Notes: generated by a model from the sequence alone, not told the origin. 58,854 nt of DNA from a virus (IMGVR_UViG_3300028025_000002:1-58854); one strand, 5' to 3'. Shown: positions 18,727-41,513, numbered from the stretch's first letter. Translations and numbers: made by a program.

Positions 18727-19065
18727 ATGGGTTCATTTACATCTAAAGCGCCATGCCGTGAGGCAGACCCTTGGCTCTTTGACCAATTTAATTTAGATTT
18801 AGCGCAACCAGCACTCAACTATTGTTCTCGATGTATTTTTTGGGGAGAGTGTGAATCTCTAGTACAGCCTAAGCCTAGTTTTTATGATGGAGTAGTTGCT
18901 GGCAAGGTATGGCGAAATGGAAGAATTGTGGCTAAGTTAGACGCCTCTTCCCCCTATCGTCTAATTGTTGGAGAGGAACCCGATGAAGATATTGATGCCA
19001 TGGAATTTCGAGGGAGCGAGTTGTTGGGGGATAGAGACGAACTATTTTTTTCCCGAGAAGAATGA
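18727..19065 (+). CDS. WhiB-like protein (divergent), probably leaderless
   Basis: APC...DP.LF...C..C.F..EC...GVVAG. Confidence 0.7.
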   Translation: MGSFTSKAPCREADPWLFDQFNLDLAQPALNYCSRCIFWGECESLVQPKPSFYDGVVAGKVWRNGRIVAKLDASSPYRLIVGEEPDEDIDAMEFRGSELLGDRDELFFSREE

Positions 19066-19258
19066 GATAACTGAGGAGAATAAAAAAGTAAAAAAGATTT
19101 GTAATGGATGTTACTGGAAAGAAGAATGTCTGACCTATGCGTTACATTACAAAGTAGTCGGCATTTGGGGTGGAAAATCTACTAAAGAACGCGACAGTAT
19201 AAGAAAACAACTAAACATAATCGCCAAATCAATATCCAATGAAAGGCATATAGCATGA
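18983..19258 (+). CDS. whiB: WhiB family transcription factor
   Basis: Four Cys (C...CNGC..C), FFP, GIWGG..ER; GAGAGGA RBS. Confidence 0.9.
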   Translation: MKILMPWNFEGASCWGIETNYFFPEKNEITEENKKVKKICNGCYWKEECLTYALHYKVVGIWGGKSTKERDSIRKQLNIIAKSISNERHIA

Positions 19259-20246: not shown

Positions 20247-21680
20247 ATGGCTGAGAAAATAACGCCTGATTTACAAGAGTTCGGCTCTACTGGTCTGCGT
20301 CGTTCGGGCGGAACTGTCTTTGAAGAATTTTTAGTTAATCTCCGTGGACAACGCGGAGCGAGAATCTATCGTGAGATGGCGGACAACGACCCGACTATCG
20401 GCTCGATGTTATTCGCAATCGAAAAAGTTATTACTCGTCTTGAATGGCGCATAGACCCTTATTCAGATAATTCTAAAGATGGAGAGATTTCTCCTGAAGA
20501 TAAAGAAGTTGCGGCGTTCGTAGAATCTTGTTTACACGATATGAGCGAGTCTTGGGACTCTGCTTTATCTCAAATGCTTTCGATGTTGGTCTTTGGTTAT
20601 TCATACCATGAGATTGTTTACAAAATCCGCGAAGGTGATAACGAAAACCCACAGCGTAAATCTAAATTCAATGATGGTCGTATCGGCTGGCGCAAGATGC
20701 CAATTCGCGCCCAAGAAACTTTATTCCGATGGATGATGGATGAAGATGGCGGTATTCAAGGAATGGTTCAAGTAGACCCTTCCTCGGGCGGTATCCACCA
20801 CATTCCAATCGAAAAGTCTTTGCTATTCCGTACCAGTTCACAGAAGAATAACCCTGAAGGTCGTTCTATTCTTCGTAACTCATATCGCTCTTGGTACTTC
20901 AAGCGCCGTATTGAAGAGATTGAAGCAATCGGTATTGAGCGCGACTTAGCAGGTTTACCAGTTGCTTATGTGCCACCTGAGTTTCTTTCATCAACAGCAA
21001 CTACCGAGCAAGCATCAGTATTAGCGACAATTCAAAATATCGTTACATCTATCAAGCGTAACGAGCAAGAAGGAATCGTCATGCCTTCTATGTATGACGA
21101 CCAAGGACATAAGGTATTTGATTTAGTTCTTCTATCTTCAGGCGGTTCTCGTCAGTTTGATACAGACAAGATTATCCAGCGTTATGACCAAAGAATTGCA
21201 ATGTCAATCCTTTCTGACTTTATTCTCCTTGGTTCTGACCGAGTTGGTTCTTATGCCCTTGGTACATCCAAGATGGATTTGTGGTCAATGGCGGTTGATT
21301 CAATCGCTAAGAACATCGCTGAAGTAATCAATCAACACGCAATTCCTCGTTTATTAAAACTAAACGGTATGGATGTTTCTCGCGCTCCTTATCTAACTTA
21401 TGGTGAAGTAAGCCATGTTGATTTGAATGAGATTGCTGGATTTGTTGGAGGCTTAGTACAAACAGGCGCAATAGTTCCTGACCCTAAGTTAGAAGAGTAT
21501 CTTCGCGATTTGGCTGGATTACCACCTGCTGAACATGATGGACAGAATTTTGGTATGCCTCCAATGCCTGAAGGCGAAGGGCTTCCTCCAATGCCTGAAG
21601 AATCAACTACATCAGGCGAAGAAGAATTACCTCCCGCTCCTACACAAACTGAGGCTCCGAAACTTCCTGAAGTTGGTTAA
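20247..21680 (+). CDS. Portal protein (DUF935/Mu gp29-like)
   Basis: YREM..ND..I, FGYS..EIVYK, NPEGRSILR, GIERDLAGLP, GSYAL; first gene of the head module. Confidence 0.88.
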   Translation: MAEKITPDLQEFGSTGLRRSGGTVFEEFLVNLRGQRGARIYREMADNDPTIGSMLFAIEKVITRLEWRIDPYSDNSKDGEISPEDKEVAAFVESCLHDMSESWDSALSQMLSMLVFGYSYHEIVYKIREGDNENPQRKSKFNDGRIGWRKMPIRAQETLFRWMMDEDGGIQGMVQVDPSSGGIHHIPIEKSLLFRTSSQKNNPEGRSILRNSYRSWYFKRRIEEIEAIGIERDLAGLPVAYVPPEFLSSTATTEQASVLATIQNIVTSIKRNEQEGIVMPSMYDDQGHKVFDLVLLSSGGSRQFDTDKIIQRYDQRIAMSILSDFILLGSDRVGSYALGTSKMDLWSMAVDSIAKNIAEVINQHAIPRLLKLNGMDVSRAPYLTYGEVSHVDLNEIAGFVGGLVQTGAIVPDPKLEEYLRDLAGLPPAEHDGQNFGMPPMPEGEGLPPMPEESTTSGEEELPPAPTQTEAPKLPEVG

Positions 21681-21682
21681 AG

Positions 21683-22687
21683 ATGGCAATTCATTTTGCG
21701 AAAGCGCGAAATAAGCGAGTTCCTTTAACACCTCAAGAACAAGAACTTGCTCGCACTCTTTATCAATCAATTCAGCGAGCCACAGATAAAATCTCTATGA
21801 GACAACTTGAATCGTTGCTTCGCAATATGAATCCTGAAACTTTAGAGCGTTTGTTATCAAGCATAACTATTGCTAACCAAAAGAGTATCCAAGAATCTTT
21901 ATTAAATTCGATTGACCTAGGTGGTAAAGATGCCATCAAACAAATTCAAAAGATTGCTCCTAAATTAGCCCTTCCAGCCTTCTCGCCTTCTAAGGTAAAG
22001 ATTGATAATCGACAGGCAATGGCTAACCTTGAATTCACAAAACTTCCTACATGGGCGCAATCTAAACCACCCAAAGTTGAATTCACTATGTCATTTAATA
22101 AAACAAACCCAAACTCTTTAGCCTTTGCTCAACGCCGTGCTGGAGAACTTATTACCTCGATTGACGCTTTAACCCGTAATTCAATTCGTAAAGCAATCAT
22201 TGACGCCTTTAATGAAGGCTTGGATTACAGAGCAACAGCCCGAAGAATTAAAAGTGTCGTAGGGCTACATCCAAGATGGGCTGATGCAGTAACTAATTTT
22301 GAAAAAAGAGAGTTTGCCCGATTAGTCAAAAGCGGAATGAAAGAAGAGACTGCTCGCGCTCGCGCAATAGAACGCTCTACCCGCTACTCAGATTCTCTCA
22401 AGAGCAAAAGAGCAACAATGATTGCTCGAACAGAGATTCAGATTGCTCAAAATGAGGGGCGCTACGAAGGTTGGAAGCAAGCATCAGAACAGGGTTATGT
22501 AGATGTTGAATCACAGAAGATGTGGATTATTGCTCAAGATGAACGCACTTGCGAAATTTGTTCTGAATTAGATGGCGAAATAGTTCCTTGGAACGAAACA
22601 TTTTCTAGCGGACATGAAACTCCAGGCAGAGTTCATCCTAATTGTCGTTGCACCATGGTAATCATTCCACCTGAGAGACGCTCATGA
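21683..22687 (+). CDS. MuF-like minor head protein
   Basis: RA.MIARTE, K.W....D.RTC.IC..LDG, HPNCRC. Confidence 0.9.
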   Translation: MAIHFAKARNKRVPLTPQEQELARTLYQSIQRATDKISMRQLESLLRNMNPETLERLLSSITIANQKSIQESLLNSIDLGGKDAIKQIQKIAPKLALPAFSPSKVKIDNRQAMANLEFTKLPTWAQSKPPKVEFTMSFNKTNPNSLAFAQRRAGELITSIDALTRNSIRKAIIDAFNEGLDYRATARRIKSVVGLHPRWADAVTNFEKREFARLVKSGMKEETARARAIERSTRYSDSLKSKRATMIARTEIQIAQNEGRYEGWKQASEQGYVDVESQKMWIIAQDERTCEICSELDGEIVPWNETFSSGHETPGRVHPNCRCTMVIIPPERRS

Positions 22688-23460
22688 GTATTACAATCGC
22701 ATTTCCACTTGGATATAAGCCAGTAATTAAACACGGAGACCACGACCAGTCTAGCCATGGTGCTTGGGCTTCAGGAATCATGAATGACCTTGTTACTTTA
22801 GGTAATTTCAATGAAGAGGAGTTGGGAGAAAGTTCACAAAATCTGTATTTTGAAACATACGGGATTAAAACTGATGGCAGTAAAGAACCCGTAGGAATCT
22901 CCCGTAATCAAATAGAAAGTTTGAACTCCTACACAGGAGAGGGATATACAAAAATAAATGCTTTTTTGCGCGGGCGAGGAGATAGTGGAAGCGACCCATT
23001 ATCAACAACAGAAGGCAAAATTTCTGATTTAGATAAACTTATAGAAGATTCACCCGATATGTTCGGAGACAAAAATTTATATCGAGTATTTGATAAAAAC
23101 CTAATAGATACTCTAAAAGAAGGAGACATTTTGACAGACAAAGGATTTATGTCTACAACTAGAGTTGATATAACAAGTGATGAGGGTCAAGAAGTATTGC
23201 AAAACTTACAGTTGATTCGCTTAACAGAAGATAGAGCCTCAATTATTTTGCCAAGTGAGTCTAAAAAAGGCAAAGGTCTTGCAGTCGATTATCTTAAAAA
23301 TTCTGTTTCAGATTTGTTCACAAATGTAGCAACAGCAAATAATGAAAAAGAAGTATTATTGCCACGCAATACTTCTCTCAAATTCCAAGGCTATAAAAAA
23401 TTGAATGAGGGAACGGACAATGCCATGGAGATTGCAGTCTTTCAAAGGATGGACAAATGA
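22684..23460 (+). CDS. ADP-ribosyltransferase (VIP2/Alt-like) with HDQ tag
   Basis: YT..GY..IN..LR, LYR, DKGFMSTT, EKEVLLPRNT. Confidence 0.88.
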   Translation: MSITIAFPLGYKPVIKHGDHDQSSHGAWASGIMNDLVTLGNFNEEELGESSQNLYFETYGIKTDGSKEPVGISRNQIESLNSYTGEGYTKINAFLRGRGDSGSDPLSTTEGKISDLDKLIEDSPDMFGDKNLYRVFDKNLIDTLKEGDILTDKGFMSTTRVDITSDEGQEVLQNLQLIRLTEDRASIILPSESKKGKGLAVDYLKNSVSDLFTNVATANNEKEVLLPRNTSLKFQGYKKLNEGTDNAMEIAVFQRMDK

Positions 23461-24179
23461 GTAGATTCATAACCATGCTTGGGGATGTTGAGATAACCCG
23501 AGCCAAAGATGTTAAAAAACATGGAGACCACGACCAAAGTTCTCACGGTGCTTGGGCTACGGGAGTTGGCTATAAAGATTCAGATGAACACCCCAAATAC
23601 GATTCTGCTGAAAATGGCGTAAATGTTGAATACTATACAAGTGTCGGGTCTTGGGAAATTAACGGTCTGCTTAGAACTGGAAAAGTACCTGAAGATTCAA
23701 ATTCTAATAAAGGAGAAATTCGTGACTATATTAAATCTCTTGATACCGAAATAAGTAAAACTTCAACACCTAGAGATTTAGTTTTATTTAGAGGAACTTC
23801 GGGAACTGGAACTGAAGTTTTTGAAAAACTTAAAGTAGGCGATATTTATATTGACAAAGGTTTTGTTTCAACTACTTTAGATATAGCCGTTGTACCTGAA
23901 TTTATGTCTACGGCTACGGGCGGGAGATACGATTCAAGACCAATAGAAAAAGGATATGTTTTAGAAATAAGCGTTCCTAAAGGCAGTAAAGCCTTATCAG
24001 TCAATAGTTATTTTAGAAATGTAAGTGGCAGATATGGACCAAGCGACGATATTCGTAAAGAGGATGAACATATTTTGCCACGCAACACAAAATTTAGAGT
24101 GGATAGCATAAGTAGTATTGATGTTCGAGGTCTAAAAGATAAACTTATTAAAGTATCGGTGGTAGATGATGGCAAGTAA
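23457..24179 (+). CDS. Second ADP-ribosyltransferase (VIP2/Alt-like) with HDQ tag
   Basis: IN.LLR, LFRG, DKGFVSTT, EDEHILPRNT.F.V. Confidence 0.88.
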   Translation: MSRFITMLGDVEITRAKDVKKHGDHDQSSHGAWATGVGYKDSDEHPKYDSAENGVNVEYYTSVGSWEINGLLRTGKVPEDSNSNKGEIRDYIKSLDTEISKTSTPRDLVLFRGTSGTGTEVFEKLKVGDIYIDKGFVSTTLDIAVVPEFMSTATGGRYDSRPIEKGYVLEISVPKGSKALSVNSYFRNVSGRYGPSDDIRKEDEHILPRNTKFRVDSISSIDVRGLKDKLIKVSVVDDGK

Positions 24180-26040
24180 ATATGTTTATGCCGAATCAGA
24201 CGATATTGAAATCCTTATATCTAAGCACGGCGACCATGACCAGTCTAGTCATGGCTCATGGGCGAAGGGAGTCCAAGTAGCCCCTGAGATTGTCCGCTCA
24301 ACCCTTGAGAGGGTCAAGGAGAATGGCGGTCTCTCAGTAAGCCTAAAGGACGGTTCTGAGCCTACTAAGGGGTTCATGGTTGCCAAAGGTAAGAAGTTCG
24401 CGGCGATAGTCAAGGCTGACGAATTTTTTGATGAGGCTAAGGGCGCTGAGATTCTTTCCTCCTATATGAAGCAACATAAATCAGAGTTCAATAATTCGAA
24501 TAACTACCTAGGTTTATGGCACAATACTGATGATGGACAGGTTTACCTTGATGTTTCAGAAAACATTGAGGACGAGGGGGAGGCTATCTCTCGGGGTCGT
24601 GAACGCGACCAAATCTCAATTTGGGATGTAGCAAACTTCAAAGAGATAGAAACAGGAGGAACAGGTGGCATCGAAAAAACTCGAAGCGGTACAACTGCCC
24701 GATATGTCGAACATGACAGACGAGCAGATAGACGCTTACGCCAAAGAGATTTGGGCGAAGTTAGCAAAAGGCAAGAACGAGTCAAAGTAATTTATTTTGA
24801 TTATGGATTAAAACCCGTATTCAAACACGGGGAACATGACCAGTCCGAACACGGTAACTGGGCTAGAGGTTTTACTGAAGATGAAATTGCTCGCATAGAA
24901 GAAATGCGCGGTGTTGGTCCATCTTTAGAGGACTTAGATAATGTCATGAAAGATATGGAAGTTGAATTTAGTGATGAGCGATTAAAACTTACTGTTGAAA
25001 ATGACAGCGACTTTTATAGAGAAGCAACTCAAGATATTGATGAAAAGGTTGCTGAACGCCTTAAAAACCTACAAGAAGAATTTCCTAACCATGAATATAG
25101 TGAGCAAGAAAAAGCAACCATCTATGAAGATGTACAAAACGAGATGATTGATGAGTATGTAGAAAATTACAGAGATATGCTGACTGAATACGAAACACTT
25201 AATTCAGGCGAAACAGGCGGTACCCAACAAGACCCTGAAGAGTTAGTTCCGTATTTTGACGAGGTTTTTGGAGTTAGCCATACGGGTACTCACCCTGATG
25301 GTCGTGAAATAACTTTGACCGCAAACATCGGTAGCGTGTTTAGAGACGGAAATAGTATTTATGTCCGTGGAGATATTGTCGATGAAAACGGCGATATGGT
25401 CGGAGAACTTAGCCGAAGATTTTTTAATGAAAACGGTATATGGAATGTTGAACACGAAGTCCTAGCAATTCCTGACCCTGATTATCAAGGTACAGGTTTT
25501 GGTAAAGCACTCATTGAGCAATCTGAGGCTTGGTACACAGCAAGAGGTATGGGATATATTCAAGTTGGAACAGCATGGGATGGCGCTCGCCATTGGGCGC
25601 GAGCAGGTTATGACTTTGCGCCTGGGAAGGTTGCTGACAGTCTACAAACGATTGCTAACAATGTTGAATATGTAGATGGATTCGAAAGAGGCACTCCAGC
25701 AAGAGCGGAGTACGATGCTTTGATGAGTAGAGCAACAAATAATTATCAACCTGATTTTACAGATGAAAGTGGTAATCAATACCCCGCTTGGGATTCAGTT
25801 AAAGATATAAAAGAAGATGGTTTTCCCCTTCCTGCTCATTTTGCAAACATTGGTTACACAGAGGGCGCAAGAGATTGGGCTGGCAAGAGTTTGATGTATG
25901 ACTTGAGATTGAAGTATGTAAAGTCATTGACTGCTGAAGGTCAGAAACTATTAGAGGGTCCTATCGACCATGATGGCGATGGATTGATTTATGACGGAAC
26001 AGCGCGTGAGAAGCCAGCACCTACTGGCGGAAAGAACTAA
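24169..26040 (+). CDS. Multidomain protein with two HDQ tags: unknown domain plus GNAT-like acetyltransferase
   Basis: GNAT motif YQGTGFGKAL...G..HWARAGYDF; C-terminal DHDGDG..YDGT motif. Confidence 0.75.
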   Translation: MASKYVYAESDDIEILISKHGDHDQSSHGSWAKGVQVAPEIVRSTLERVKENGGLSVSLKDGSEPTKGFMVAKGKKFAAIVKADEFFDEAKGAEILSSYMKQHKSEFNNSNNYLGLWHNTDDGQVYLDVSENIEDEGEAISRGRERDQISIWDVANFKEIETGGTGGIEKTRSGTTARYVEHDRRADRRLRQRDLGEVSKRQERVKVIYFDYGLKPVFKHGEHDQSEHGNWARGFTEDEIARIEEMRGVGPSLEDLDNVMKDMEVEFSDERLKLTVENDSDFYREATQDIDEKVAERLKNLQEEFPNHEYSEQEKATIYEDVQNEMIDEYVENYRDMLTEYETLNSGETGGTQQDPEELVPYFDEVFGVSHTGTHPDGREITLTANIGSVFRDGNSIYVRGDIVDENGDMVGELSRRFFNENGIWNVEHEVLAIPDPDYQGTGFGKALIEQSEAWYTARGMGYIQVGTAWDGARHWARAGYDFAPGKVADSLQTIANNVEYVDGFERGTPARAEYDALMSRATNNYQPDFTDESGNQYPAWDSVKDIKEDGFPLPAHFANIGYTEGARDWAGKSLMYDLRLKYVKSLTAEGQKLLEGPIDHDGDGLIYDGTAREKPAPTGGKN

Positions 26041-26059
26041 ACTGGGGTATAATTAAACT

Positions 26060-26221
26060 ATGGCTATGAGTAGACGAGAAACCCAAAAGGCTATCCAAGA
26101 GGCTTATTCAAAATGGGCTGAGAAGGTTCAATTTACTTCTTACACAGGCGCCGATGAAGCCGATGAAACAATACTTATGCAAGAAATTCAAACCATACTT
26201 CAAGGAAATAAACCCGAGTAG
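26060..26221 (+). CDS. Small hypothetical protein, probably leaderless (candidate immunity protein)
   Basis: ATG 6 nt after TATAAT; 53 aa; sits between effector genes. Confidence 0.55.
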   Translation: MAMSRRETQKAIQEAYSKWAEKVQFTSYTGADEADETILMQEIQTILQGNKPE

Positions 26222-26246
26222 TAATACCATCCGCTATTCTTAGAAC

Positions 26247-27884
26247 ATGGCGGATATTGCTCCTAAACTGATTCATCTAAGCGCTGAGAAACTACTCGCG
26301 CTTCATGAGAATGTCCATAAATCAGCGTCTCCAACCTCGGCTGAAATTGAGGTTCATCACACCATTCTCAATGAGATGGCTAGACGCAAGATGGAACGCC
26401 CAAAGGATGATTGGGATAAGTACGAGATTCTTATAGATTCAATCGACAATGTAGACCTAACTAGCCTTAACGGATTACCAGCCGAGACCATCCTTGATGT
26501 CATAAAAACAACAGGGGATACAACTGGCAATATCAAAACTTTCTTAACAGTTGATGGCTACCAAATGCGAGTAGAGGCTGTTGAAAAAAGAATTGCTCAA
26601 GAAGATGGTAAATGGATTGTTTACAATGAAGAAGGAACTAGAAGTTTTGGAAGTTATGATTCTAAAGAAGAGGCTGAAGAACGCTTAAAACAAATTGAGT
26701 TTTTCAAAGCCGAGGGAGATTACAAACCACCTAAGTCTGTTAGAGAAGCGGCGCAAAGAGCGATTGAATGGATTGAGGCTGGTCTTGCTGGAGATGGTTT
26801 TACTTCAGTCGGTAGAACTAGAGCAGGTCAGTTAGCCCGTGGAGAAAACATTAGCATTGAAACTTTGAAAAGAATGAAATCATTTTTTTCTCGACACAAA
26901 GTTGATGGACAAGCCCTTGGATTTAATCGTGGCGAAAAAGGATTCCCTAGCGCTGGTCGAGTGTCATGGGATGCTTGGGGTGGAGATGCTGGATTCGCAT
27001 GGGCAGAATCAATGGTGGAGAGATATGAAAATCAAGTCAAAAAACACGGAGACCACGACCAATCTGAACACGGAAGTTGGGCTACTGGAGGTAGCGGTGG
27101 AGAAGATAAAGGTTCTACTGGTCGTCCCTCTATGGCACCCGATAAAAAAGCATCCGCAGAAAGAAGCCCTGACGCAGTTAAACAAGCACAGAGAATTAGA
27201 AGAGATGCTGAAGCAGTTGAGCCAGTAGTTACATCTTTGATGGAGGGAATCGCTAAATCTATTGATGCTGATTTTGCCGAATTAGATGGCAAGAGTTCTC
27301 TTGTAAATAGATTAAAGTCCACAGATTCTCTCGCACGAAAAATTGACCAAGATGCAGAAAAGGATTACGGCGGAGATAGAGAAAAAGCGGCAAACGCACT
27401 TTCTGATGCTGTTCGCTACACACTCAATGTTGATGATAATAACTACACAGACGGCGTAGAAAAAGCGATTAAGTCTGTTGAAGAAACTGGTTGGAAAGTT
27501 GAATCAGTTAAAAACTTTTGGCAAGCAGGTGACCCTTATGACGGTACCAACATTAAAATTAGCAAAGACGGGGTAAAGGTTGAATTACAACTTCACACCC
27601 CAACATCTCATAAAGTTAAAGAAGTAGATTTACATGATGACTATGAGGTTTATCGAGTTTCCAAAGACAACACAGAGCGCAAAGCCCTGTGGGATTCGAT
27701 GGTCAATAAGGCTAAGGCAATCCCTAGACCAGCGAACATGGGCAAACTATTGACCCTTGGAACGCTAGTTACACAGACTTTTGAGACCGCACAGCAAGCA
27801 GGTTTGGTAAAATCAACGGGGGTTGATATAATGTGGACAATAACGAGAGGAGGTATAGCCGTATGCGGTATTTCGCAAAACTAG
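26247..27884 (+). CDS. Multidomain head-associated protein ending in an HDQ-tagged RelA/SpoT-like synthetase domain
   Basis: RLKS..SL.RK, DAVRYT, KNFW...YDG.N, VELQLHT; upstream small domains (RMKSFFSRH...WGGD). Confidence 0.82.
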   Translation: MADIAPKLIHLSAEKLLALHENVHKSASPTSAEIEVHHTILNEMARRKMERPKDDWDKYEILIDSIDNVDLTSLNGLPAETILDVIKTTGDTTGNIKTFLTVDGYQMRVEAVEKRIAQEDGKWIVYNEEGTRSFGSYDSKEEAEERLKQIEFFKAEGDYKPPKSVREAAQRAIEWIEAGLAGDGFTSVGRTRAGQLARGENISIETLKRMKSFFSRHKVDGQALGFNRGEKGFPSAGRVSWDAWGGDAGFAWAESMVERYENQVKKHGDHDQSEHGSWATGGSGGEDKGSTGRPSMAPDKKASAERSPDAVKQAQRIRRDAEAVEPVVTSLMEGIAKSIDADFAELDGKSSLVNRLKSTDSLARKIDQDAEKDYGGDREKAANALSDAVRYTLNVDDNNYTDGVEKAIKSVEETGWKVESVKNFWQAGDPYDGTNIKISKDGVKVELQLHTPTSHKVKEVDLHDDYEVYRVSKDNTERKALWDSMVNKAKAIPRPANMGKLLTLGTLVTQTFETAQQAGLVKSTGVDIMWTITRGGIAVCGISQN

Positions 27885-28594
27885 GCGCAAACAACGAAGC
27901 GATAAACATTTATCGTTTTGAGGTGGGCGAGACGACCATTACTGAGGACAGATGGGACATTCGAAGCAAGGCTTGGGTGGATAACCCTGATGCTGATGTA
28001 GTTCGCTATCTAACCCAAGGCGAAGGTGAATTCCAAGAAGTTACTGAGGATGTAGCCCGTCAAATTTTTCCTGATGTATTTAGTGAAAATGCTACAAAGG
28101 CTTTAGGTAAGTTTGACTTGCAAAAAGCAGAAGGTGAAAAGCGATACACGCTTGGAGCAATGTATATCCCTGATATGGAAGATGCTCACGGTGAGTGGAC
28201 AGATTCCGAAGAATTACAAAGAGCGGTTTGGGATTATGTAAGAAGTAATGACCGTCGTATCCGTTTACAACATAACCGTGATGTAGTTGCTGGAGAATGG
28301 GTTGAAGTTATGGCTTTCCCTTATTCATTAACAGTTCCAATCAAAACACCTAATGGTCAAGACTTAGAACATACATACCCACCCAACACAGTTTTCCTTG
28401 GAGTCATTTGGGAACCGTGGGCGTGGGAAATGGTCACCGAAGGAAAAATTCGTGGCTATTCAATCGGCGGAAAAGCAGAGCGTTTATTCGTTGATATAGA
28501 CTTAGAAAAGAATGACCCAACTGTGTCGGATGTACACATTGATACAATTATGTCCCCTTCAAAGAAAAAGCCAAAGAAAGAAGAGACTGTATGA
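27863..28594 (+). CDS. XkdF-like prohead protease with an extra N-terminal domain
   Basis: Y.PD.EDAHGE, LQH, W..V..G.I.GYSIGG.A; GAGGAGG RBS and internal TGaTATAAT promoter at about 27824-27832. Confidence 0.85.
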   Translation: MRYFAKLGANNEAINIYRFEVGETTITEDRWDIRSKAWVDNPDADVVRYLTQGEGEFQEVTEDVARQIFPDVFSENATKALGKFDLQKAEGEKRYTLGAMYIPDMEDAHGEWTDSEELQRAVWDYVRSNDRRIRLQHNRDVVAGEWVEVMAFPYSLTVPIKTPNGQDLEHTYPPNTVFLGVIWEPWAWEMVTEGKIRGYSIGGKAERLFVDIDLEKNDPTVSDVHIDTIMSPSKKKPKKEETV

Positions 28595-29025
28595 AAAAAG
28601 ACCTTAGAATGTTAGACGAATTACGCAAAGGACCTTTGGCTGGTATGGACGAGGACGAGTTCAAAATGATTGAAGCGGATGTCCGTAAGTTTGGCTTTAA
28701 GGGGCTTAGTGGCTACGCAAAATCTATGGTCATGGAGGCTATGCGCCGTTTAGGAACCACTATCAATAAAGCGGTTGAAGGAAAGTTAATTGAATTTAAT
28801 AAAAGCATTTCTGTTGGAGATAAAGTAAGTTGGAATTCTTCAGGAGGAAGTGCCGAAGGAAAAGTATTACGAATTGAACGCTCAGGAAAAATCAATGTTC
28901 CTGATTCATCATTCGAAATTGAAGGCACAGAAGATGACCCTGCGGCGTTAATTGTCCTTTATCGTGATGGTAAACCAACTGATACTAAAGTTGGGCATAA
29001 AGTTTCAACACTAAAAAAAAAGTAG
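28591..29025 (+). CDS. Protein with Hva1/DUF2945-like Tudor domain; ends in a slippery A-run
   Basis: VGDKVSWNSSGG...G.V...DDPA...VGHK.STL. Confidence 0.7.
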   Translation: MKKDLRMLDELRKGPLAGMDEDEFKMIEADVRKFGFKGLSGYAKSMVMEAMRRLGTTINKAVEGKLIEFNKSISVGDKVSWNSSGGSAEGKVLRIERSGKINVPDSSFEIEGTEDDPAALIVLYRDGKPTDTKVGHKVSTLKKK

Positions 29026-29234
29026 TTCTTGAGAAGCACGGGGACCATGACCAATCAAGTCATGGCGACTGGCGCAATGCCGATGATTCTGAAGGTGAAG
29101 ATTCATCAGAACCAAAAAACCCAAAACAAAATTTTGTTCCATACGATGATGACTCCGAAGGTGAGTTTGCAGATTTAGATTACGATGACCCAAAATGGAT
29201 GGACACAATGGATTACCCAAGAAAGAAGAAGTAA
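29013..29234 (+). CDS. -1 frame extension of 28591 carrying the sixth HDQ tag and an acidic tail
   Basis: KVVLEKHGDHDQSSHGDWRN...YPRKKK*; no start codon before the tag; its TAA overlaps the next ATG. Confidence 0.7.
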   Translation, partial: KKKVVLEKHGDHDQSSHGDWRNADDSEGEDSSEPKNPKQNFVPYDDDSEGEFADLDYDDPKWMDTMDYPRKKK

Positions 29235-29500
29235 TGCCAAGCGTTATTGATGACACGATGCAAGTTCTTAAATCTATTGGTATCGAGTCTTATCGAGTTT
29301 CAACCCCGCCTGGGTACGCTGGAATCCAAGTAAATCTACCTAATGATTCTCAAGCATTTTTTGTATGGACAAAGATAGACACAACTGATTATCACTTCAG
29401 ATTGGCTCGGTTTTGGGCTAACGAGAATCCATTTTCAATGTGGGTCTCCCCGAACTTAATTGAAGCCTTGGCAAAGACAAGGGTTTTAGCAAACCAATAA
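29234..29500 (+). CDS. Hypothetical protein
   Basis: MPSVIDDT start in a TAATG overlap. Confidence 0.65.
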   Translation: MPSVIDDTMQVLKSIGIESYRVSTPPGYAGIQVNLPNDSQAFFVWTKIDTTDYHFRLARFWANENPFSMWVSPNLIEALAKTRVLANQ

Positions 29501-29603
29501 AAGGCTTGAATTACACTTATGGTATTCTTCATCTGTCAAGACCCGAGGTTAGTTTTATTAGCCCTATGCTAAAAGACTACCCTCTAGTTTGTTAGGAGCA
29601 TAA

Positions 29604-30407
29604 ATGTCAAAACCCCGTACCCGTAAAATGGTGAATTTAGCCATCGAGGAAACGAGTGGAGTAGACCATCCAGCGCACTTACATGAAGGTTGGCTTGTTA
29701 TGAAGTCAGCATCCGAATCTGAAGTTCAGAGGGTTCTCGACAAATCGCTGACCGAGGAGGACTCCAATATGGAGGAAACAACTACCACGGCACCTGAAGA
29801 GCAGGTTGAAAAAACCGTTGAGGAAGAACTAGCGATGGCGCAAGCCCGTATCGCTGAACTCGAAGCCAAACTCGCCGACAAGGAAGAAAAGCCTGAATTG
29901 GAAGTTGAAATGGCGATGGGTCAAGACTCAAAGGAACCAAAGAAGGAAGAAGAGGACTACATGAAGTCCGCTCCTGCTCCAGTTGTCAAAATGATTGAGG
30001 ACTTGAGAAAGCAAGCAGAATCAGCAACCGCTGAACTTCGCAAAGAACGCGAAGCCCGTGCTGACGCTCAAGCCGTTGAAAAAGCAAAGGGTTGGGCTAA
30101 TCTCAATCTCAATGCTGAAAAAGTTGGACCAGCGCTTCGTCGCTTGTCCGAAACAGATTCAGAACTAGCAAAGAGCGTAGAAGAAATTCTTTCTTCAGTT
30201 AATGCTCAGGCTGAATCAGCATCTATTTTTGCAGAAATCGGCAAATCTGCGGACTTCAAATCAGGCAATGCTTATGAGCGTATGACTACGCTTGCTAAGT
30301 CTGCCGTTGATGAGGGTGTAGCAAAGTCTTTCGCTCAGGCGATGGCTGATGTTGCGTCAAAAAACCCTGACCTTTACAGCCAATACCTATCCGAGAAAGG
30401 TGCCTAA
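29604..30407 (+). CDS. Capsid scaffolding protein (putative)
   Basis: EETSGVDHPAH N-terminus, acidic coiled coil, position before decoration and capsid genes. Confidence 0.75.
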   Translation: MSKPRTRKMVNLAIEETSGVDHPAHLHEGWLVMKSASESEVQRVLDKSLTEEDSNMEETTTTAPEEQVEKTVEEELAMAQARIAELEAKLADKEEKPELEVEMAMGQDSKEPKKEEEDYMKSAPAPVVKMIEDLRKQAESATAELRKEREARADAQAVEKAKGWANLNLNAEKVGPALRRLSETDSELAKSVEEILSSVNAQAESASIFAEIGKSADFKSGNAYERMTTLAKSAVDEGVAKSFAQAMADVASKNPDLYSQYLSEKGA

Positions 30408-30818: not shown

Positions 30819-31796
30819 ATGCCACAGCCAAATATCAATTCCGTCCATGTGGACGCAATTCTTACAAATATCTCGGTTGCTTACTTACAGAACCAAGATA
30901 ACTTTATCGCAGACAAGGTATTCCCAGTAATCCCTGTCGATAAGAAGAGCGATAAATACTTTACTTACACCAAGAACGATTGGTTCCGCGATGAGGCTCA
31001 ACGCCGTGCGCCTGGAACTGAATCTGCTGGTGGCGGTTACAATCTTTCAACTGGAACTTACTCAGCAGATGTTTGGGCGTTCCACAAAGATGTAGATGAC
31101 CAAACAGTTGCTAACGCAGACGCTCCTCTAAACCCTCTTCGTGAGGCAACAGAGTTCGTTACTCGCCGTTTGATGCTTCGTCGTGAACTACAATGGGTTT
31201 CAGATTTCTTTGGAACTGGTGTATGGGCTGACGATGTAACTGGCGTTGCTGGCGCACCATCTTCAGGACAGACAAAGCAATGGTCTGACTACACATCATC
31301 CGACCCAATCTCAGACATTGAGGCTGGAAAGGCTGAAATCTTGGGCAACACAGGAATGGAAGCAAACACTTTGGTTCTTGGATACGATGTATTCAAGTCA
31401 CTAAAGAATCACCCTGACCTTGTAGACCGCATCAAGTACACATCTTCACAGACAATCACAACCGATATGTTGGCCGCAATGTTCGACATTCCTCGCGTTA
31501 TGGTTGCAAAGGCAGTTAAGGCAACAAACGCTGAAGGTGCCGCAGAGGCATACGGATTCGCTCATGGTAAGAAGGCTCTTCTTTGCCATGTTGCTCCACA
31601 GCCTGGACTACTAACCCCTTCTGCTGGATACACATTCGCATGGACTGGTGTATCAGGCGGACTTGGCGCAACTATCGGAACTTCACAGTTCCGTATGGAA
31701 TCCATCAAGTCAGACCGAGTTGAAGCAGAAATGGCTTTTGATAACAAAGTTATTTCTTCTGACCTTGGCTACTTCTGGAACACAATCGTCGCTTAA
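30819..31796 (+). CDS. Major capsid protein
   Basis: HVD..LTNISVAY...FIADKVFP.IPV.K.SDKY; position; terminator follows. Confidence 0.9.
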   Translation: MPQPNINSVHVDAILTNISVAYLQNQDNFIADKVFPVIPVDKKSDKYFTYTKNDWFRDEAQRRAPGTESAGGGYNLSTGTYSADVWAFHKDVDDQTVANADAPLNPLREATEFVTRRLMLRRELQWVSDFFGTGVWADDVTGVAGAPSSGQTKQWSDYTSSDPISDIEAGKAEILGNTGMEANTLVLGYDVFKSLKNHPDLVDRIKYTSSQTITTDMLAAMFDIPRVMVAKAVKATNAEGAAEAYGFAHGKKALLCHVAPQPGLLTPSAGYTFAWTGVSGGLGATIGTSQFRMESIKSDRVEAEMAFDNKVISSDLGYFWNTIVA

Positions 31797-41254: not shown

Positions 41255-41513
41255 TTTCTTCAAGGATTTAGATTCTTTGATTGGCATAAGCCGAGAACAG
41301 GGCGGTTGCTCAATCGGCAGATTAGTTTCAAAATTAGATGAACCTTTGCGTTCTAAACTTAATGAAATTATGAGAAATGAAAAAGTAAACTCTGCTCGTC
41401 TTTCTGAAGTTATGTTAGCCTATGGGCTTCAAGTATCTTCCAGCGATGTTCTCAGAAGGCATCGACGAAGGCTTATAGGTAAAGACGGGTGTAAGTGTCC
41501 GAATGAGTCTTGA
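41127..41513 (+). CDS. Hypothetical protein (start uncertain)
   Basis: C...RHRRR...CKC pattern; overlaps the phosphoesterase start. Confidence 0.55.
   Translation: MAETQQPMSSSDAGNVTGSSSKAQRVRGVSDVPVVNPKINQDDFFKDLDSLIGISREQGGCSIGRLVSKLDEPLRSKLNEIMRNEKVNSARLSEVMLAYGLQVSSSDVLRRHRRRLIGKDGCKCPNES

Follow-up and report, generated by a model that had tools for sequence, protein, structure and literature searches.

The virus sequence IMGVR_UViG_3300028025_000002:1-58854 (the whole stretch of 58,854 bases that we analysed, hereafter the window) is the complete record of a freshwater phage, with direct terminal repeats. Its head-gene region encodes six copies of a short conserved peptide, K-HG(D/E)HDQS(S/E)HGxW, which we call the tag. 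All six are on the + strand, between the gene for a MuF-like head morphogenesis protein and a scaffold-like gene (Table 1); three lie 16–21 residues from the N-terminus of a protein and three lie between domains. Related tags are carried by hundreds of metagenomic proteins, where they punctuate putative effector proteins encoded among head genes, and the sequences on their two sides are combined freely. We tentatively favour the reading, to which we give somewhat less than an even chance, that the tag serves the prohead protease (family S78 or S78_2) as a signal for both encapsidation and processing, a proposal built on the architecture of the tagged proteins and on analogy.

The tag in the window and in metagenomes

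Six-frame translation of the 58,854 bases returned the six copies, and a looser pattern, H-x1-2-H-[DEN]-Q-x2-H, found nothing beyond them in the same sequence. A degenerate DNA pattern for K-H-G-D/E-H-D-Q-S matched six times, whereas 100 dinucleotide-preserving shuffles averaged 0.00 matches. Over the 14 codons of the tag, the six copies are 73% identical as DNA and 85% identical as protein, with 84 synonymous and 31 non-synonymous differences in 210 codon-pair comparisons, and the flanking 42 nucleotides share just 30–33% DNA identity. The synonymous codon differences, together with the dissimilar flanks, argue for selection on the tag peptide. A preliminary description of this DNA had placed six copies at these positions and nowhere else, all between MuF and scaffold, and had read the differing codons as a sign of selection on the peptide; each of these claims is borne out by the translation, the shuffles, the coordinates and the codon comparison.

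Searching IMG/VR with the strict DNA pattern gave at least 118 stretches, from which all counts over 118 loci are drawn; single loci have names beginning with L. These stretches hold 326 in-frame tags, always on one strand per locus, and homologues of the window's head genes lie beside the tags in 95 of the 118. Across 266 distinct contexts, conservation extends beyond the search pattern to Trp at +11 (85%), Ala at +12 (73%), Gly at +14 (83%) and Val at −3 (55%). The tag core can be written V-x-K-H-G-D-H-D-Q-S-x-H-G-x-W-A-x-G, some 14–18 residues long, with the tag residues K, H, D, Q, H and G invariant.

We compared a 38-column profile of the tag with 1.84e9 representative proteins and obtained 644 matches at E ≤ 1e-3, 218 at E ≤ 1e-10 and 22 at E ≤ 1e-30. 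The best matches were giant proteins, including one of 7059 residues with 20 tags (P0001) and one of 1880 residues with eight, and the median spacing from tag to tag was 212 residues. Three variant forms were seen, KHGTGDQSPHGNWA, KHLPGQHDQSTHG and KHLGDQHDQKSHGNWARGY; the form KHGTGDQSPHGNWA, in which Gly replaces the second His, makes up most of the 20 copies in P0001, and the KHLPGQHDQ variants carry two to four inserted residues. KHLPGQHDQ-like strings may occur in cultured actinophage proteins as well.

A word-indexed search recovered 578 tagged proteins, almost all metagenomic and none with an informative name. Cargo was tabulated for 79 of the 150 best proteins, each of at most 900 residues. 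ADPrib_exo_Tox was found in 19 and GNAT in seven, and the other domains were Zeta_toxin, DUF5872, DRAT, Peptidase_S78, S78_2, DUF6321, DUF7178, DUF3626, Hva1_TUDOR, SprT-like, ATLF, ParB_N and PARP. ART-PolyVal, Phage_Mu_F and Phage_portal are likewise present among tagged proteins. The tags fell almost always in modules of head or other structural genes, and the portability suggested in the preliminary description is strongly supported, given 644 protein clusters, many enzyme families, and leaders and modules that are freely combined.

In the genome_contigs collection, which holds one genome for each of 185,579 species, three contigs matched, all from metagenome-assembled genomes (MAGs) of Actinomycetota with 56–69% G+C. 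Among isolated phages, megablast of the head region was without a match. With a 23-residue tag query, tblastn gave no match up to E 10, low-complexity masking being the probable cause, and tblastn with tagged proteins or with P0006 returned only matches to cargo or MuF, from which the tag is absent. That the tag-bearing phages have a common host phylum is likely rather than established.

Junctions, cargo and the putatively recoded sixth copy

Close relatives of the window keep the portal, MuF, protease, scaffold and capsid genes in synteny, with median identities of 86–93%, and the tagged open reading frames (ORFs) between these head genes vary, with median identities of 61–71%. When the flanks of the tag were clustered, 74 upstream and 105 downstream types occurred in 143 combinations; one leader type was joined to 18 downstream types, and one downstream type to 15 leaders. 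From these sequence comparisons, the tag behaves as a recombination breakpoint.

Tags also stand at junctions in a second head lineage (G001, G002, L064 and L077; 53–57% G+C), which has a different terminase and portal and an HK97-type protease and in which BLAST detected no head protein in common with the window. Here, in 25 of 27 protease–tag ORFs, a set itself selected for tags, no more than four residues separate the tag from the end of the protease homology, and in the other two it lies 49 residues past that end. An S78_2 domain is followed directly by a tag in P0031, P0186 and a MAG contig (L124), a portal domain is followed by a tag in P0037 and L077 (tags at 514, 647 and 817), and in P0035 a tag separates ADP-ribosyltransferase (ART) modules from a C-terminal MuF. 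A protease of the S78 or S78_2 family is encoded in the window (S78_2) and in all five of the distant tag-bearing records tested. The complete 38-kb genome G001 contains 12 tags, all in ORFs that come after the portal gene and before the long ORFs downstream of the cargo; its genes were named by the order and size of the ORFs and with the help of the annotated relative L064. Judged by these architectures, the tag marks the junctions between head domains, here called vehicles, and their cargo, as well as those between one cargo and the next.

In the window, the first two cargo proteins are ARTs, and their translations contain the R-S-E residues of the family, as YRV...STT...EKE in ART1 and FRG...STT...EDE in ART2. 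The third tagged protein, of 624 residues, has the order leader, tag 3, α/β domain (residues 38–168), tag 4, acidic stretch and GNAT domain (residues 392–479). We modelled its residues 1–245 with AlphaFold2 (AF2): the core at residues 38–168 reached block values of 79–90 for the predicted local distance difference test (pLDDT), segments 1–37 and 169–224 were under 50, and tags 3 and 4 lay in low-confidence stretches with block means of 28–52. The model shows both tags as predicted disorder flanking a confident core. For the fold of that core, Foldseek gave no match at E ≤ 0.001 (best E ≥ 0.07), and the best Z from VIA-align was 4.3.

The 545-residue protein consists of an N-terminal region, tag 5 and a domain resembling small alarmone synthetases (SAS). 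Queried with residues 300–545, this domain matched PDB 8vx3 ('SaSAS', E 2.4e-13) over about residues 352–498, which expresses sequence similarity to a solved SAS; the domain also matched the NCBIfam XopAD C-terminus (E 5e-22). Residues 159–263 (26721–27035) matched, by tblastn, ORFs for proteases or major capsid proteins, such as the prohead protease of a Pontimonas phage. The domain at 159–263, which is without a Pfam family, stands N-terminally on prohead-protease or capsid ORFs; its carriers are Roseobacter CRP phages, Synechococcus S-CBS1/3, Pontimonas phage phiPsal1 and an Actinomycetia phage. The 50 residues at 108–157 (26568–26717) are 48–50% identical to part of ORFs of T4-like Cronobacter, Enterobacter and Klebsiella phages, annotated as 'RNA ligase', 'anti-CBASS protein' or hypothetical. 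Both the 624- and the 545-residue protein combine two or more unrelated domains on one polypeptide, as is characteristic of phage polyvalent proteins (Iyer et al. 2017), and so do relatives such as P0035 (ART-PolyVal, a PARP-like stretch and MuF) and P0002 (eight modules).

A leader consistently precedes the tag. In 232 tagged proteins that start with Met, the first His of the tag is never within the first eight residues, and leader lengths peak at about 14–15 and 20–21 residues. The leader in front of the tag takes the form of a short hydrophobic strand.

The preliminary description had listed two ARTs, a domain it did not recognise, an acidic region with GNAT, a RelA/SpoT-like domain and a short acidic peptide downstream of the six tags. 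The list stands for all copies, except that the sixth does not head an ORF of its own. Tag 6 has no ATG, GTG or TTG start and lies in the −1 frame behind the ORF for a 144-residue Tudor-like protein, which ends in a run of nine A (A9; Table 1). Its frame could be reached by either of two routes, ribosomes slipping by −1 on A AAA AAG or transcriptional slippage that adds one A, and the expected recoded product would be a 214-residue Tudor–tag–tail protein.

We compared this site across 43 related, non-duplicate loci that show where the Tudor-like gene ends. A9 is kept, with the tag in the −1 frame, in 33 of them. Three have both tag and acidic tail in frame: L042 and L081, from which the A run is lost, encode a direct Tudor–tag fusion reading STLRKSQVEKHGDHDQ, and L023 has tag and tail on a 314-residue protein with weaker Tudor similarity. 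In four further loci (L010, L015, L044 and L061), an extra DUF5824 protein of about 323 residues ends with the tag and tail, read in its own frame. The last three are variants, L072 (A8), L104 (a T-to-A change giving A10, judged by eye) and L058. The extra gene (L010:3058-4026, − strand; DUF5824 E 8.5e-6) lies between the Tudor-like gene and the small head gene, and the Tudor gene of these four loci is without an A run.

The conserved A9 and the in-frame fusions together read as the comparative signature of programmed recoding: there is a slippery run, a startless −1 ORF, conservation of both, and direct fusion in relatives. The probable ATG of the small head gene overlaps the stop codon of the extension (TAATG), which argues for translation of the extension; this start is assigned from the conserved M(P/S)S(V/I)IDDT. 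The ORF finder had placed the start at an upstream ATG, 29195, probably wrongly. One contig from an RNA library crosses the A run without a gap, contigs being assemblies that hide minor forms.

The acidic tail that follows tag 6 ends MDTMDYPRKKK, and the protease ends (I/V)DTIM.P.KKKPKK. The common C-terminal pattern, h-D-T-h-[MD]-x-P-x-KKK, is present in all 37 proteases and in 36 of 39 tails (28540–28594 and 29190–29234 in the window). Of 1325 distinct ORF-segment ends in the loci, among which those proteins are counted too, 35 show it. From its sequence, this peptide of protease and tail is a candidate for an anchor in the procapsid. In HK97, the protease is targeted to the capsid by its C-terminal tail; if that role holds here, the frameshift would give the Tudor-like protein the anchor of the protease, with the tag in between.

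Table 1. Features of the head-gene region of the window. Each tag range starts at its Lys codon.
Feature	Coordinates	Strand	Evidence or detail
Portal, Mu-type	20247..21680	+	Pfam Portal_Mu E 5e-40; phrog_113 E 2.3e-94
MuF-like head morphogenesis protein, untagged, without fused cargo	21683..22687	+	Phage_Mu_F E 2.2e-19; phrog_3517 E 7.5e-62
Cargo 1 (ART1): 16-residue leader, tag 1 (22729-22770), ADP-ribosyltransferase	22684..23460	+	ADPrib_exo_Tox E 4e-14, residues 63-242
Cargo 2 (ART2): 21-residue leader, tag 2 (23517-23558), ADP-ribosyltransferase	23457..24179	+	ADPrib_exo_Tox E 3.5e-19, residues 53-234
Cargo 3/4: 624 residues, two tags (tag 3, 24223-24264; tag 4, 24823-24864)	24166..26040	+	Acetyltransf_1 E 4.6e-4
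545-residue protein: N-terminal region, tag 5 (27042-27083), small-alarmone-synthetase-like domain	26247..27884	+	phrog_2859 E 1e-231
Prohead protease, XkdF type (S78_2), untagged	27833..28594	+	Peptidase_S78_2 E 5e-11; C-terminus VHIDTIMSPSKKKPKK
Tudor-like 144-residue protein, end STLKKK*	28591..29025	+	Hva1_TUDOR E 7.8e-7
A9 run, putative recoding site	29013..29021	+	C TAA AAA AAA AGT AG; Tudor-like ORF ends CTA AAA AAA AAG TAG
70-residue −1 frame extension: VVLE, tag 6 (29034-29075), acidic tail ending WMDTMDYPRKKK	29022..29234	+	Sequence
Small conserved head-module protein	29234..29500	+	Homologues in 53 of 118 loci
Scaffold-like acidic helical protein, untagged	29604..30407	+	phrog_13547 E 4.5e-91 (function unknown)
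Putative major capsid protein, untagged	30819..31796	+	Labelled by gene order and length

The head genes of the window are ordered portal, MuF, two ARTs, 624-residue protein, a 53-residue ORF and 545-residue protein, followed by protease, Tudor-like protein, small conserved protein, scaffold-like protein, a 130-residue protein and capsid. The labels of the small conserved, scaffold-like, 130-residue and capsid proteins come from gene order and composition, the scaffold role in particular from composition and a position upstream of the capsid gene. MuF is a separate ORF of 334 residues that ends before ART1, so that the window has no MuF–toxin fusion of the kind described by Jamet et al. 2017, and no MuF fusion was seen among 57 homologous loci with inspected maps. 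In the protease, the motifs DAHG and GYSIGG are invariant across 37 homologues; PHROGs with the names 'RNA ligase' and 'DNA methyltransferase' match the protein as well, through their C-terminal parts. The putative capsid protein had no match in NCBIfam, the one family search made on it; homologues occur in 39 of the 118 loci at a median identity of 93%, and that of L002 is 49% identical.

Outside the tagged region, a WhiB-family protein is encoded at 19010–19198 (E 1.1e-14), with which an actinobacterial host fits. It is one of two overlapping Cys-rich ORFs in 18727–19258, the other (18727–19065) being WhiB-like by eye only. A 397-residue protein at 41503–42693 matches Metallophos_2 at E 0.005, below the family cut-off, and has full-length counterparts of about 42% identity in G001 and G002; it is the only full-length non-cargo protein in common, and apart from it these genomes share only tags and ARTs with the window. 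We considered this protein as a common partner of the tag and dropped it for its location outside the head module. Contigs about 85–99% identical to positions 28400–29600 are present in freshwater, subsurface and other metagenome runs from several studies, and in one library labelled metatranscriptomic, which does not imply transcription.

Possible functions of the tag

In the processing model that we favour, a linear tag would mark proteins bound for the head interior and set the boundaries between their modules, and the prohead serine protease would recognise it. Free-standing cargo (ART1, ART2 and the 624-residue protein) would enter the procapsid by means of leader and tag and then shed the leader. 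Cargo fused to other cargo or to a vehicle (portal, MuF, protease, the N-terminal part of the 545-residue protein or the Tudor-like protein) would be cut free at the tag during maturation, and each released enzyme could then exit alongside the DNA and work inside the actinobacterial host. Tag 6 would join the Tudor-like protein, via the −1 shift on A9, to an acidic tail that copies the C-terminal peptide of the protease. Virion packaging, recognition by the protease, cleavage and ejection are steps that we infer: a leader before the tag, and tags at vehicle and cargo junctions, correspond to the way in which propeptides and polyproteins are laid out for processing in phage heads. Since tags are also found where fusion to portal, protease or MuF should by itself secure encapsidation, loading alone would not be the tag's job, and a per-module junction or processing signal fits the layout better.

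Several points weigh against this model. The tag is far longer and more conserved than three-residue prohead-protease sites such as the AXE described in PMC10052503. In the window, the scaffold-like, capsid, portal and protease proteins are untagged, so the protease would need other sites or substrates, and the protease–tag ORFs of the second lineage were gathered by their tags. The tag is near-identical across different protease subfamilies and across head proteins without BLAST similarity, which would be unusual for a co-evolving pair of enzyme and site and points to intrinsic chemistry or a host partner. Lastly, split polyproteins break upstream of the leader and not at the tag; leader and tag therefore stay with the downstream module on gene fission, as an N-terminal part of that module, and this would suit a docking element too. 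A predicted complex of window protease and tag peptide scored 0.00 against a mark of 0.32, in a run without controls, and was evidence neither way; an AF2 model of the G001 protease domain with the tag (240 residues, 25 rows) had a mean pLDDT of 38.5 and was unusable.

Such docking is the strongest alternative, although we consider it a good deal less probable than processing, at roughly one chance in four. Leader and tag would tether modules, uncut, to the procapsid interior (capsid, scaffold, portal or MuF), in line with the preliminary description, which had inferred that the tag loads enzymes into the capsid or directs their ejection, and would resemble the cargo-loading peptides of encapsulins, or the capsid targeting sequence (CTS) of T4 minus its cleavage. 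ART1, ART2 and the 624-residue protein have no other candidate targeting element, each module has one tag, gene fission leaves leader and tag where a docking peptide would be expected, and the T4 CTS offers a precedent as the only conserved part described for the diverse internal proteins (PMC3012670). However, the tags behind portal, protease and MuF would then be superfluous for encapsidation, twenty anchors on one chain would impede its exit, and the tag is kept even though capsid, portal and scaffold share no detectable similarity between the lineages.

Near-identity in unrelated head lineages would be explained if the tag worked by itself, without a phage partner, either as a His/Asp metal clasp that self-associates and so condenses cargo or through metal-assisted or autocatalytic cleavage. 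The invariant residues (K, H, D, Q, H and G) include Asp and two or three His and would suit such chemistry, and the preliminary description had suggested that the His-rich tag might bind metal. Yet the second His is Gly in most copies of P0001, which weakens a strict three-His site, and the KHLPGQHDQ variants tolerate insertions of two to four residues. No precedent was found (no PDB sequence matches the profile at E ≤ 10), and the downstream conserved Trp, Ala and Gly look more like a recognition surface; we regard self-contained chemistry as unlikely. Marginally less likely again is a related proposal, that the tag is protease-independent punctuation which separates or clusters modules by its own chemistry or during translation, and this too would explain the near-identity across unrelated heads, portals and proteases.

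The tag might instead act after injection, if a conserved actinobacterial protease or other partner separated or positioned the effector modules in the cytoplasm. Conservation in unrelated phages that possibly share a host phylum is consistent with this, as are WhiB in the window and the origin of the only three genome_contigs matches, all MAG contigs of Actinomycetota. Against it, WhiB was found in none of the five distant tag-bearing records, so that a common host is no more than likely, and the tags behind a prohead-protease domain and before a protease-like tail point to head assembly; we think a post-injection role improbable. The view that the tag is an evolutionary linker, a shared sequence for recombination of cargo cassettes without biochemical function, accords with the mosaicism at the tag but has very little probability, because the synonymous bias implies selection on the peptide and 73% DNA identity over 42 nucleotides is short for homologous exchange.

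Relation to known systems

Head-packaged ARTs, fusions of effectors to MuF, portal or protease, polyvalent proteins, and targeting or propeptide signals are already known. Within the literature and libraries that we searched, we found no description of a conserved 14–18-residue junction motif that punctuates head-packaged effectors: none of the Pfam, PHROGs or NCBIfam matches on tagged proteins was a family for the tag, and literature searchable by motif string held no relevant account of it, in agreement with the preliminary description, which knew of none. As a simple sequence marker, the tag points to proteins that uncultured actinobacterial phages probably carry in their heads, so that hundreds of candidate injected effectors, many without a known family, could be listed from metagenomes. 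The packaging, separation and delivery of very large polyvalent proteins becomes a directly testable question, and should the tag prove enough to bring about encapsidation and release, foreign proteins could be loaded into phage capsids by means of this compact handle.

The closest relatives by content are the polyvalent and MuF- or portal-fused effectors (Iyer et al. 2017; Jamet et al. 2017), whose reported domains, including ARTs (among them ART-PolyVal), GNAT, RelA/SpoT-like, ParB and peptidases, recur here (PMC5512222). Polyvalent proteins are described as having a late or virion gene context and are predicted to be injected (PMC5512222), and the window's cargo likewise lies between MuF and the protease, scaffold and capsid genes. 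Unlike those effectors, it is split into separate tagged ORFs with no MuF fusion. At keyword level, the main texts of the two papers hold no conserved inter-module motif, and their supplements may hold alignments in which it is visible. ARTs of freshwater actinophages have been read as VIP2-like 'Trojan horse' toxins against grazers (PMC6802176); for the tagged ARTs in the window and in related loci, the head-module position and the tag favour injected anti-host effectors like Alt, the ART that T4 is reported to package (PMC5512222).

The T4 prohead protease follows the cleavage rule L/I-x-E. The internal proteins of T4 are described as sharing only the conserved CTS, for entry to the scaffolding core (PMC3012670). 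In the window, three of the six tags stand behind N-terminal leaders of 16–21 residues, which may compare with the CTS, and three are internal. Unlike the CTS, the tag also occurs internally, in up to 20 copies and behind portal, protease or MuF domains, and it is much longer and more conserved. In giant phages (SPN3US and phiKZ), the prohead protease is reported to cut at AXE, taking off N-terminal propeptides (20 and 24 residues long in two cases) and a C-terminal propeptide of the protease itself (PMC10052503). Such N-terminal propeptides are found on many ejection and head proteins; the leaders here, mostly of about 14–21 residues, and the tag behind a protease domain are comparable. The giant-phage site, as reported there, is a three-residue motif with weak flanking preferences, in contrast to the tag of at least 14 residues.

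Two further systems offer analogies of arrangement. Herpesvirus assemblin, which belongs to the same structural superfamily, has the order protease, site, scaffold, site and capsid-binding tail, with both sites (R and M) cut. By analogy only, the order here is protease, tag and modules in one case, and Tudor, tag and protease-like tail in the other, with a consensus that differs from that of assemblin. Polymorphic toxins carry a short conserved pre-toxin motif, such as VENN in CdiA, at the point where toxin modules are exchanged; such motifs belong to secreted bacterial toxins with immunity genes, whereas the tagged modules described here lie in the head module of a lytic phage.

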